A stretch of 64,000 nt of DNA from a virus (taxonomy: Duplodnaviria > Caudoviricetes). The position numbers were made by a program, and so were the translations under genes. Where the stretch lies: positions 32,001 through 96,000 of the IMG/VR virus record IMGVR_UViG_3300029288_000067, one strand, 5' to 3'. Below, piece after piece: positions 20,534-24,216 of this stretch. The notes under the pieces were generated by a model. That model searched no databases and had not been told where the DNA came from. It saw only the letters and a list, made by a program, of their open reading frames with translations. Position 1 is the first letter of the stretch, and the number at the start of each line of letters is the position of its first letter.

Positions 20534-22080
20534 TTTTTTATTAATTAGACTTCCATTTCATTTAACCACACAGAGATTCGATTGTCAATACTATTTTCCA
20601 ACGATGTGATAATAATACCGAAAAAGATCTTCGATAGGGCCGGGAGGCATCATCCGAAATGCTCGGTCAATTCCCAAGTATACTTTTCCATCGGAAGGAA
20701 AATCCCAAACATTGCTTACGGCATTGGGGTCCGTGTGCAACAACATCGTTTCATAATCGTCTGCTTTTTTAAGCATTTGGCGGTTAGCATGGCGAAAGTT
20801 TCGGCTTGCCCGTTTCTTCGCCATATGATCCGAACCACGACGACCGTGACCCAACACAACAGTCTTTACAAAACTTCGTGACATCTCTAAGGCTCCTTGT
20901 TTAAGGTTTCTTAGAGAAAACTCTCCGGGTACTGTTGAATATTCATTTTTACTCTCCTGTGAGTAGATCAATATCTTCTTCGATACGTTTAAGCCCTTTA
21001 TTGGACTTTTCCAGAACATCCATTGCTTCCGAAATTTTTGAAGTACTGCTGCATTCCGATACAGCTAATCTAATAGAATGTATTTTTCTTTGTAAATTCT
21101 TCAATTGCCGGATTGACAACGATTCAGTTTCGGTATTTTTCATTTTTTACATCCCTGAAAGAGTTTTATATGTCAAAAGATTCTTTTCCAAGTCTGAAAT
21201 TGTCTGCCGAAGATACCCAATACAGAGCATTGTTGGTTTATTGTATTCCCGGGTATGCACCTCTGAGGACCCACAAACCCGGCAAGCTTCTGTTGCTTCT
21301 TTTTTTGCAGAATTGTGTCTTCGATCGTTTATGGTATATGCCATCTTGTCTTCATTTCCTTAAAAAATTTAAGAGTTTGATTACAAAAAATGTTATCAAA
21401 CTCCCGAGAAGAAAGTAATATTTTAATTCCTCCTCGTGCATTTCCTTCAAACAATCATTGTGATAATCTGTTCCATTTTCATCGTGACTCGAATAGTGAC
21501 ATTTCGGGCAGGTATCTCCATACATCAGTATTTCCCCTCTAAGTATATTTTTGGAGGCATGTTGAATCTTCGCTTAAAAGAGCAAGTTCCACACAAGACT
21601 GTTGCCGTTCTACCTATTGGGGTATCTGGAACTATCAACAAGATCCCACAATCAACACAAGGAATTTCTACGACTCCTACAGGCTTTTCCTTCGGATCTG
21701 TCATATTTTCGCTCATATTGGGAACTACCATCCTGCTGCCTCTTCCTGTCCAATCGCCAGCCCGATAGACTTTCCAAGAGAATATCCTTCGAGATAACTC
21801 ACAAAAGCCTTGTTTGTTTCCCCATTGGTATACCAGTGCCCCGCAGGAGCTTCTCCTCGTTTTTCCCGGGTTACTTGCATATGCTTGTGGGTTTTTTCAA
21901 AATTGTCCATCACTTCACTCAATTCTTTGGAATTCATGGGCATACTCCTTTTTATTTCATCGCTGATGAGGATGAGAAATACTATTCCCCTGTTGCAACC
22001 TACAACAGACTTCCTCACAACAAGAAGACACCTTGTTGTGAGGCAATTTATTTTGCCCTATAGACACAGGGCATGAGCAA

Positions 22081-22630
22081 TGCCGGGAGCGGGACTTGAA
22101 CCCGCACGAGATTTCTCCCTCCGGATTTTACCTACCACTTCGGCTTTCGCCGCCAAGACTTTAACTTTCTGTACCCGTGGGATACAGGGCTTTTCTTGTT
22201 CGTGGTCTGGATCATATCTTTGCACAGGTCTATGCCATCTCCAGCTTTGAAAGCCTTTATGACACGCTTTGCAAGCGAAGCCCGAGTTTCCTCTGACAAG
22301 GCAGTTGGCACATGATCTCTACGAGGGTATTCATTTCTTCCCACGTTAGGCGTTCTTCACGTCCCGTCAGGATTCATCATGAAAGAACCTTCTCTCGGAA
22401 TTGGGTTGTCCTGTCCCTCTTTCAAGTGCTCCGTATCCCAGTAACGAGATTCGGGAGAAGAGGGCTTCACCACGTATGGAGTTTATCCTTATTTGGTAGC
22501 TCTCACTATACTTTTTCAGCAAGCCGTTTTCCGATTTCGCCAACATCCCACAGGGAATTTCTTACCCTGTGGACCCATTTCACATTTGTGTTACTAGAGT
22601 CCGGTGTGTCTACCGTTTCACCATCCCGGC
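22081..22630 (-). tRNA. tRNA-Leu(UAA), intron-containing (exons 22630-22598 and 22130-22081)
   Basis: joined exons give CCGGA-CT|TAA-AA-TCCGG, long variable arm, GCCGGGA/TCCCGGC acceptor. Confidence 0.9.
22131..22597 (-). mobile_element. group I self-splicing intron (467 nt) without a homing endonuclease ORF
   Basis: P1 GGACU/GGUCC with U.G at the splice site, P3 GUUGGC/GCCAAC, P7 GAUCA/UGAUC in AGAGAUCAU and AAGAUAUGAUC contexts, ACCAC/GUGGU pairing near the 3' end, terminal G. Confidence 0.88.
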
Positions 22631-22656
22631 TATTTGTTTTTCAAAGAACTACAAGT

Positions 22657-22685
22657 ATATTACCGTAAGAGCAACAAAACTTCAA
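22657..22685 (-). promoter_or_regulatory. repeated promoter upstream of tRNA-Leu
   Basis: TTGAAG-N17-TAATAT. Confidence 0.8.
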
Positions 22686-23190
22686 GGTCTCTTTTGTACA
22701 ATCTGCAAAGAATCTTCGTCCTTTATCTCTTTTTCCTCAATTGTTGCAAGAGAAAGAAGAAACCGATTTCGGTCCATTTTAATTTCTTCTATTTCTTCGG
22801 GGAAGGGATACTTTGGATATTCCAACTCTTTGGCTTTCTGTGGAGGACACAGAAAGATAGTTTGTTGCGCCGAAGATTTATCCCTATTTTTCAATGTTGT
22901 AACGATTATTCTTTTTTGCATATTACCCCCTCCCCAGTTTCAACAATAAGTTGTTAAGAGTGTCTTTGTCACTTTCCGCCCCACCATTTTTCTCAAATAA
23001 CTCCACAATTTTGAGAATGAGTATATCCCTTTCCAACAATTTCATTTCTTCAGTAATACTTGATAATTCTGCTATTGCAAGAGTTAATTTACCGGTGTTT
23101 AAATACTCTTGCATTACTTTTGAACTTATTTCAAATTCTTTTGCAGTTCGAGCAATTCTGTTTTCATTCAATTTTTTGTAAGAAATCATA

Positions 23191-24216
23191 CTATTTCACC
23201 TTTTTGCAGAAAGTAAAGAGTTTCTCGGGATGGGCAAGGATTGCATTCCCACAGGTTATTCCACTTTCATCTTCTTCTTTCGAGGCAATAAATGTGATGA
23301 CATCAAAGCCTTCATTTCGGAGATCTTTTTCGATTTCTTTGTAAGGATAAAAAGTGGTGTAATTTCCCGGAGTTTTAATCCCTTTTTCCAGGGCTTCCGG
23401 GGTTTTATGCATAGGGGTCAATTTCACAACGTACCAATCTGGATTGAAATATTTCTTCAAATCCTTTCCCTTTATCTCATACTCTGCAACGGCAAAATTG
23501 AGGGTATATTTTCTTCCTTTCGGAGGAGAGTCAATCAATTTTGCAATTTCGGAAAGATCTAAGGAATTCCCATAAAACATATCTTCCCGGGCAGCGTCCG
23601 AAGTGGAATTGATAGAGAATTGTAACCCTGCTTCTCCTGCACAGGCAATATTTTTAAAATCAACCCACCGAGATACAAATCTTTGCAGAAATTGATTATT
23701 CTTCGGGAGCATTGTGGAAACCACAGGATGGAAATTACCCCCTCCTAATTCTGTGAATTGTTTTCCCGCGATAGCAACGGGAAGAACCTCTTTGTTAAAG
23801 GAGGGCTCCCCCATACGGGCAAAATGTAAATTCAATCGCTGGGTTTTCTTAATCTCTGGATGCAAAGAGAGAGCGGTTTGTATCTGTGTCAGCATATCCC
23901 TATAGGAACAATTCAACCCTTTACCTACTTTTGGAACAGAACAAAATTTACACCCCATAGAACATCCATACTGGGTTGAAATTGTGATGACCCATTTTTC
24001 AGAAAGGGGGAGCATTTCTTGATGTTTCACTTCCGAAATTTCCTGGGACAATCCCAAGAAATCTGCTTTAATATTTGCCTCTTTCCCATAATCCCCCAGA
24101 GAGACACACTCAAGCAACCCACCCTCACCTCTTACAACAAGGATATGCCCGGTGGGAACCTCATACAAATTTACAAGGTGGGGTTCTTTTAAAACATCCA
24201 AAGAATTGTAATCCAT
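23191..24216 (-). CDS. RlmN/Cfr-like radical SAM protein
   Basis: STQYGCSMGCKFC, MGEP, VST, C-terminal TCG. Confidence 0.8.
   Translation of the reverse strand: MDYNSLDVLKEPHLVNLYEVPTGHILVVRGEGGLLECVSLGDYGKEANIKADFLGLSQEISEVKHQEMLPLSEKWVITISTQYGCSMGCKFCSVPKVGKGLNCSYRDMLTQIQTALSLHPEIKKTQRLNLHFARMGEPSFNKEVLPVAIAGKQFTELGGGNFHPVVSTMLPKNNQFLQRFVSRWVDFKNIACAGEAGLQFSINSTSDAAREDMFYGNSLDLSEIAKLIDSPPKGRKYTLNFAVAEYEIKGKDLKKYFNPDWYVVKLTPMHKTPEALEKGIKTPGNYTTFYPYKEIEKDLRNEGFDVITFIASKEEDESGITCGNAILAHPEKLFTFCKKVK

Follow-up and report, generated by a model that had tools for sequence, protein, structure and literature searches.

[quoted passage not shown] A seed row of this catalogue, Eba21.Leu.2Ug, has the P1 helix GGACUC/GGGUCC and a GAAA-capped P2, and the same work points out that none of the 12 seeds of the Rfam family Intron_gpI (RF00028) is bacterial. 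According to the passage of PMC3984707 that cites Zaug et al. (1993), the Anabaena tRNA-Leu intron splices only if its exons pair in the anticodon stem. Our literature search for group I introns in phage tRNAs returned nothing specific, and the 33/34 site is catalogued for bacteria.

The window, i.e. the whole stretch of 64,000 nucleotides analysed here, corresponds to bases 32001-96000 of an IMG/VR virus record that is 224,066 bp long and has a G+C content of 39.4%. It carries an interrupted tRNA gene, which we mapped using, among other means, R1, a covariance model derived from eight short introns that occupy the same site in the tRNA:

22598-22630, minus strand: exon 1 of tRNA-Leu(UAA), nt 1-33 (sequence and ARAGORN -i)
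22131-22597, minus strand: group I intron of 467 nt (sequence, ARAGORN -i, R1 model and hand mapping)
22081-22130, minus strand: exon 2 of tRNA-Leu(UAA) (sequence and ARAGORN -i)

Exon 1 consists of the acceptor 5' strand, the D arm and the anticodon-stem 5' strand, with C32-U33 as its last bases. Exon 2 contributes U34-A35-A36, A37-A38, the anticodon-stem 3' strand, a long variable arm, the T arm, the acceptor 3' strand and the discriminator A; no CCA is encoded at the end of its sequence. When joined, the exons form a canonical 83-nt class II tRNA-Leu(taa) with an unblemished cloverleaf (ARAGORN), and the anticodon stem CCGGA/UCCGG is intact across them. The first base of the intron is a C, paired to G22576 in P1, and its last base is the terminal G22131, which lies directly before UAAAAUCCGG in the minus-strand sequence. 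With the intron search switched on, ARAGORN called the gene as tRNA-Leu(taa) i(34,467). In default mode it reported no gene here, and the best that the Rfam tRNA model produced was a partial match of 20 bits, below the threshold, an outcome that a preliminary description of this DNA had considered possible for standard tRNA finders. The coordinates and exon/intron boundaries given in that description were exact on the minus strand, and its claim of a phage tRNA-Leu(UAA) interrupted at U33/U34 by a group I intron agrees with the ARAGORN call, the R1 matches and the full core presented below. We consider it highly probable that the phage has here a functional tRNA-Leu(UAA) gene whose U33 and U34 are separated by a group I intron of the Leu.2Ug class, ORF-less and of IC3 type, which is likely to be competent for splicing.

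The phage possesses 31 other tRNAs, including those for Leu with the anticodons GAG, UAG and CAA, and the split gene is the only UAA isoacceptor in the whole genome. Of the Leu codons in ORFs with 200 or more codons, 14.6% are UUA and 35.6% are UUG, together 50%. The spliced tRNA would complete the Leu decoding set of the phage, an argument that splicing is under selection. Directly upstream on the minus strand, a search for sigma-70-like promoters was negative, and the split gene is probably co-transcribed as part of a longer transcript. Outside the window, ARAGORN found a tRNA with a four-base anticodon (ggaa; G000:C1:209314-209390, plus strand), flanked by tRNA-Leu(gag) and tRNA-Leu(tag) within the second tRNA cluster of the phage.

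The intron was resolved into the following elements:

22571-22602, minus strand: P1, GGACU/C (22602-22597) paired with the internal guide sequence (IGS) GGGUCC (22576-22571)
22549-22571, minus strand: P2 hairpin, CACAGGG/CCCUGUG with a loop containing GAAA, which the covariance model puts on its P2
22539-22544, minus strand: P3 5' strand GUUGGC, pairing with GCCAAC at 22309-22304 (mapping and covariance model)
22395-22534, minus strand: P4-P5 domain (motif mapping and covariance model register)
22323-22394, minus strand: P6, GAG (22394-22392) paired with CUC (22325-22323)
22304-22322, minus strand: J6/7, P7 5' strand, J7/3 and P3 3' strand (motif match to the family consensus)
22233-22303, minus strand: P8 domain with the putative closing helix UGCC/GGCA (22303-22300 with 22236-22233)
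22210-22232, minus strand: 12 extra nt, J8/7 and P7 3' strand (motif mapping)
22131-22206, minus strand: P9 domain (R1 match, BLAST and hand mapping)

The wobble pair of P1 is U22598(U33).G22575, and its enlarged loop of 20 nt contains a mini-hairpin; the IGS is GGGUC in all family members in which it is recognisable. Since C22571 is common to P1 and P2, one pair is lost from one of these two helices. P4 is formed by UCGGAA (22534-22529) and UUCCGA (22400-22395), and P5 by GG (22525-22524) and CC (22405-22404), the two helices being connected by J4/5 (AAC) and J5/4 (CAA) and P5 being extended by 118 nt (22523-22406). P6 continues into P6a (GG/CC) and an extension of 60 nt (22387-22328). It is followed by J6/7 GUAGA (22322-22318), the P7 5' strand GAUCA (22317-22313), J7/3 UGU and the P3 3' strand GCCAAC (22309-22304); the family consensus for J6/7-P7 is GUAGA-GACUA. 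The P8 insert of 63 nt is branched, and a hairpin within it is capped by GAAA. How exactly P8 closes is the least certain point of the map: with UGCC/GGCA the 12 extra bases (22232-22221) stay unpaired, and a 3-bp UGC/GCA would place the helix directly next to J8/7, the arrangement seen in the family. J8/7 AAGAUA (22220-22215) and the P7 3' strand UGAUC (22214-22210) complete this part of the core. P9 pairs ACCAC (22206-22202) with GUGGU (22138-22134) and encloses P9.1 (AAGA/UCUU, with a 35-nt insert) and P9a (CGGC-GAAA-GCCG, 22152-22141); the tail AGG ends in the terminal G 22131. All twelve core helices are fully complementary, and their positions are fixed by the J3/4, J4/5, J5/4, J6/7 and J8/7 motifs. 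Several proposals of the preliminary description were thereby borne out: pairing of the IGS GGGUCC (22576-22571) with exon GGACU, placing the U.G pair at U33; G22131 as the sole terminal G, followed by UAAAAUCC and giving canonical joined exons; and the positions of P3 (22544-22539/22309-22304) and P7 (22317-22313/22214-22210).

An alternative P4 drawn by eye, GGUG/CGCC or GGCG/CGCC, was ruled out, as the J5/4-P4'-P6 motif CCAAUUCCGAGAGAAG matches both the family consensus and the covariance model. By eye, no P10 pairing of the guide region with the 3' exon was evident. RNAalifold paired the guide GGGU with AUCC of the 3' exon (nt 38-41) in all eight short family members (A1 columns 18-21 with 244-247, corresponding to 22575-22572 with 22126-22123 in the window). 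We regard this pairing as a by-product of the resemblance between the guide and the anticodon-stem 5' strand, a likeness by which the guide could compete with that stem. Just before J8/7, the segment ACCUGUG (22229-22223) is a near-repeat of the P2 3' strand CCCUGUG (P2, 22571-22549). An alternative helix of this segment with CACAGG, the P2 5' strand, is conceivable, and the 6-bp match may be due to chance.

The Rfam model Intron_gpI (RF00028) did not match the window intron, even when E-values up to 10 were allowed on the region alone, and the intron lies below the gathering threshold of this family. The lack of any matching Rfam family would suit an insert other than a group I intron, for instance a protein-spliced element or some unrelated structured RNA between the tRNA halves. 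We regard this as scarcely credible, because R1 matches both halves of the insert, correctly ordered and in register, introns that score above the Intron_gpI threshold have the same junction motifs and 3' terminal domain, and the U.G pair and the terminal G stand exactly at the tRNA junction. The insert thus has a U.G-wobble P1 formed with an internal guide, a terminal G and a full core from P1 to P9. On the 64-kb window R1 gave a single match (22304-22131, 18 bits, E 0.0015), which ends exactly at the terminal G, and on the whole 224-kb genome it matched at the intron only. The alignment obtained with default filters covers only the 3' half of the intron and is wrong in its 5' part; switching the filters off recovered the 5' half. 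Under these settings the region 22050-22700 gave two matches, of 18.0 bits (3' half) and 17.7 bits (22576-22332), each with an E-value of about 2e-5 over 651 nt. The register of the 5'-half match runs through the guide, P2, the P3 5' strand, J3/4, P4, J4/5, P5, a local insertion of 115 nt, P5', J5/4 CAA, P4' and P6, and agrees with the hand map made from the junction motifs.

Compared with the family consensus, eight pairs are changed on both sides with pairing kept, two in each of four helices:

P4: family UCGGUG/CGCCGA, window UCGGAA/UUCCGA
P6: family GCC/GGU, window GAG/CUC
P7: family GACUA/UAGUC, window GAUCA/UGAUC
P8: family CACC/GGUG, window UGCC/GGCA

The core is the most divergent among the 25 distinct viral introns compared, and the absence of an Rfam match together with R1 scores of only about 18 bits per half likewise ranks the intron among the most divergent family members. 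Such divergence would fit a tRNA pseudogene with a decayed, splicing-dead intron whose ribozyme has been inactivated by the large insertions and the changes around J8/7, the host tRNA-Leu(UAA) being used instead; the missing Rfam match, the low family-model scores, the uncertain closing helix of P8 and the 12 extra nt next to the catalytic junction J8/7 point in the same direction. Nevertheless, we consider decay unlikely. The core helices are perfectly paired, and the eight two-sided changes that still pair indicate selection on structure. Moreover, the U.G pair, the terminal G, the invariant G-C pair of P7, J6/7 GUAGA and J8/7 AAGAUA are all intact, the exons form a flawless cloverleaf, and the tRNA is the sole UAA isoacceptor in an otherwise nearly complete phage set.

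The peripheral excess amounts to about 290 nt, distributed over P5 (118), P6 (60), P8 (63), P9.1 (35) and the stretch before J8/7 (12). BLAST similarity to relatives was limited to the last 22-24 nt of the intron (3' ends of L055, L056 and L045, with 91-100% identity), and in phage GenBank records the region had no BLAST match in distant mode. BLAST found no close relative sharing the peripheral domains, which are therefore without comparative support. When each domain was folded separately, the folding energies were not clearly better than those of shuffled sequences (z from -0.9 to -1.4), with P9.1 as the exception (z -3.0). It appears quite improbable that these ORF-less expansions, together with the P2-mimicking segment, make splicing conditional and thereby gate, in the course of infection, the supply of the sole tRNA-Leu(UAA) and the decoding of UUA/UUG, or that the excised intron itself acts as a stable RNA. 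Very improbable, too, is that the intron splices and its peripheral RNA has a function of its own, be it protein- or condition-dependent splicing by which the tRNA-Leu(UAA) supply is timed, or activity as a stable excised or circular RNA in the course of infection. Large expansions without coding potential in four different loops would be in line with such a function, as would the ability of the 22229-22223 segment to compete for the P2 5' strand, but no relative with the same domains was found by BLAST and the folding of the domains is hardly distinguishable from that of shuffles. In addition, variable ORF-less expansions (287-817 nt) are common in the family and differ from member to member, as neutral or structural padding would.

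The ORFs inside the intron had no Pfam match, and eight small flanking ORFs within about 1.5 kb had no endonuclease match in Pfam or PHROGs. Hence, neither inside nor adjacent to the intron was a homing endonuclease found in Pfam/PHROGs searches (Pfam only for the 341-aa ORF upstream), and we conclude that the intron is ORF-less and without an adjacent homing enzyme recognised by these databases. The 341-aa ORF (23191-24216, minus strand), located upstream of the tRNA, had a weak Pfam match to Radical_SAM (15.9 bits, below the cut-off), and its relatives with 44-58% identity occur in nine viral contigs. None of the nine loci reached through this neighbouring radical-SAM gene contained a homologous split tRNA-Leu.

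The variant P7 had been described as a compensatory form of GACUA/UAGUC, and indeed two pairs are swapped with pairing kept. Among the 25 distinct viral 33/34 introns, GAUCA/UGAUC is present in the window only. Scanning for the variant P7 3' strand yielded nine viral loci, five of which have the matching 5' strand: two near-identical contigs and one other with a tRNA-Leu split at 34/35, one with a tRNA-Leu split at 27/28, and one without a tRNA call by ARAGORN. Hence, no fewer than five further group I introns from phage contigs have this variant. In an alignment of 35 members, one row of which was not aligned at P7, the following forms were counted:

GACUA/UAGUC: 19 members
GACUU/AAGUC: 7 members
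GAUCA/UGAUC: 4 members
GGCCA/UGGUC: 2 members
GACUG/CAGUC: 1 member
GGCUA/UAGUC: 1 member

The first pair, G-C, is invariant (34/34 members) and is kept in the window as G22317-C22210; in group I structures this is the guanosine-binding pair. Since the swap concerns the third and fourth pairs of P7, we conclude that GAUCA/UGAUC is a genuine double compensatory swap, which is neutral and does not alter the active site. It provides natural covariation evidence for the helix.

To place the intron among its relatives, viral contigs were scanned with a degenerate pattern (G directly before UAAAAUCC, then the T arm). This gave 72 loci, 30 of which have a matching 5' exon ending in GGACU 195-817 nt upstream and represent 24 distinct introns (IMG/VR). 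An exact 16-mer across the 3' splice junction had only two matches in viral contigs, both by chance in coding DNA. Nearly all of the viral 33/34 introns begin with C or U and have the guide GGGUC within a few to about 20 bases, the exact GGGUC being absent in three long members. In most of them the P2 hairpin has a loop of the GAAA type, and the 3' end of most is made up of a hairpin capped by GAAA and then AGUGGUARG, the motif also seen at the 3' end of the window intron; the terminal G is present in every family member compared. Three short members passed the Rfam Intron_gpI threshold of 50 bits (63, 61.5 and 53.6 bits). RNAalifold recovered P2, P3, P4, P5, P6, P8 and P9 from eight short members, with compensatory changes in 32 of 49 pairs. 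In the 35-member alignment, to which P7 was added as a pseudoknot, 41 of 48 pairs showed compensatory two-sided changes, and 95.7% of the cells were paired; the alignment was fitted to R1 and so leans towards the structure, but controls with slid partners still reached far lower values (29-41%).

In bacteria (one genome per species), at least 120 stretches matched and 80 loci were fetched. A tRNA-Leu(UAA) split in this way, with a 5' exon ending in YU upstream, was found in 22 of these 80, one of which (L095) looks spurious. The 22 loci belong to Gammaproteobacteria, Myxococcota, Armatimonadota, Bacteroidota, Rhodothermales, Kuenenia and Elusimicrobia, and 15 of them had R1 scores of 62-152 bits.

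Phage tRNA arrays that include a tRNA-Leu split at 33/34 often contain a second group I intron. Examples are L072:2077-2423 and L082:1002-1585 (both minus strand), where ARAGORN -i called tRNA-Lys(ttt) with introns of 272 and 508 nt (R1 scores of 144 and 49 bits); further R1 matches in such arrays are L045:2432-2789 and L031:3409-3581. Another such array, a long one, adjoins a full-length tmRNA (L016:5687-6059, minus strand, Rfam 106.7 bits) in the 217-kb record IMGVR_UViG_3300021399_000099. A group I intron in IMGVR_UViG_3300043424_000638 (L091:4381-4571, minus strand, R1 154 bits) splits tRNA-Leu(UAA) between nt 27 and 28, i.e. inside the anticodon stem, so that the whole anticodon loop lies downstream in the 3' exon (CGGA-CUUAAAA-UCCG). 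Its P1, GCAU/GUGC, includes a U.G pair, the gene is wrongly labelled tRNA-Arg(gcg) by ARAGORN -i, and the 27/28 site is not among the eight loop positions that Williams (2020; 10.1101/2020.01.27.920355) tested.

The preliminary description had placed the Leu intron at 34/35 and the fMet intron at 33/34, which agrees with Leu.3Ug and fMet.2Ug of Williams (2020; 10.1101/2020.01.27.920355), and had spoken of an independent insertion with large peripheral domains. The domains are large, as stated above (about 290 nt), but the novelty implied for the insertion did not hold: Leu.2Ug with the same P1 is catalogued, and the arrangement is widespread, occurring in at least 30 viral loci and in 22 of the 80 bacterial loci fetched. 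Therefore, we conclude that the 33/34 insertion site in tRNA-Leu is not new and has already been catalogued as Leu.2Ug. The window gene has the characteristics of that class, since its canonical tRNA-Leu is split between anticodon-loop nt 2 and 3 (U33/U34), with U at -1 and an omega G.

Standard group I chemistry is a two-step transesterification initiated by guanosine. In the window intron, the guide GGGUCC would pair with exon GGACU and the first intron base as P1, presenting U33.G at the splice site. Free guanosine, bound at the P7 pair G22317-C22210, would then attack after U33. The terminal G22131 would subsequently take the same pocket, and the 3'-OH of U33 would attack after G22131. Throughout, the intact anticodon stem CCGGA/UCCGG is predicted to hold the exons, and their ligation would restore the anticodon loop CU-UAA-AA. 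End trimming would be followed by CCA addition, which would be needed because no CCA is encoded.

The practical consequence is that default tRNA finders and Rfam both miss the sole tRNA-Leu(UAA) of this phage. Where such introns are present and default tools overlook them, the tRNA inventories of large phages are undercounted.

Among the known systems, the Azoarcus tRNA-Ile intron (IC3) shares with the window intron the same junction motifs and the guanosine-binding G-C as the first pair of P7; it differs in its site (36/37, Ile2.5Ug) and in being compact, about 205 nt, without peripheral expansions. The fMet.2Ug introns of cyanobacterial tRNA-fMet occupy the same loop position, 33/34, and belong to the same subgroup, but they reside in a different tRNA and would have a different guide sequence. 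The classical Leu.3Ug introns of cyanobacteria and plastids have in common with the window the same tRNA, an IC3-type core, a GAAA-capped P9 hairpin and exons held by the anticodon stem, and the Leu.3Ug-class examples from phage contigs (L086, L089 and L092) even have the same P7, GAUCA/UGAUC. However, their site (34/35, CUU/...g/AAAA) is one nucleotide downstream, and the guide differs, being ..GAGU pairing with ACUU in L092 (one example) as opposed to GGGUC in the window; given these two guides, a shift by one nucleotide between 33/34 and 34/35 is conceivable. Assignment of the window intron itself to Leu.3Ug (U34/A35) was rejected, as the base before AAAAUCC is U and not G and the sole terminal G precedes UAAAAUCC.

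The closest system is bacterial Leu.2Ug, with the same gene, the same site (C32-U33/U34) and an identical P1. Eba21.Leu.2Ug and the window intron also share a GAAA-type P2 loop and the core motifs AAAU-UCGG, GUAGAGA... and AGUCCAGACCAC, and P6, P8 and P9 are expanded in Eba21.Leu.2Ug as well. In contrast, Leu.2Ug lies in a bacterial genome and the window copy in a 224-kb virus record, with peripheral insertions unrelated in sequence, and the window has GAUCA/UGAUC where Eba21.Leu.2Ug has GACUA/UAGUC in P7, its P4 (UCGGAA/UUCCGA) and P6 (GAG/CUC) being different too. The window copy leaves the understanding of group I introns unchanged; what it adds to a catalogued class is a divergent, heavily expanded member without an ORF.
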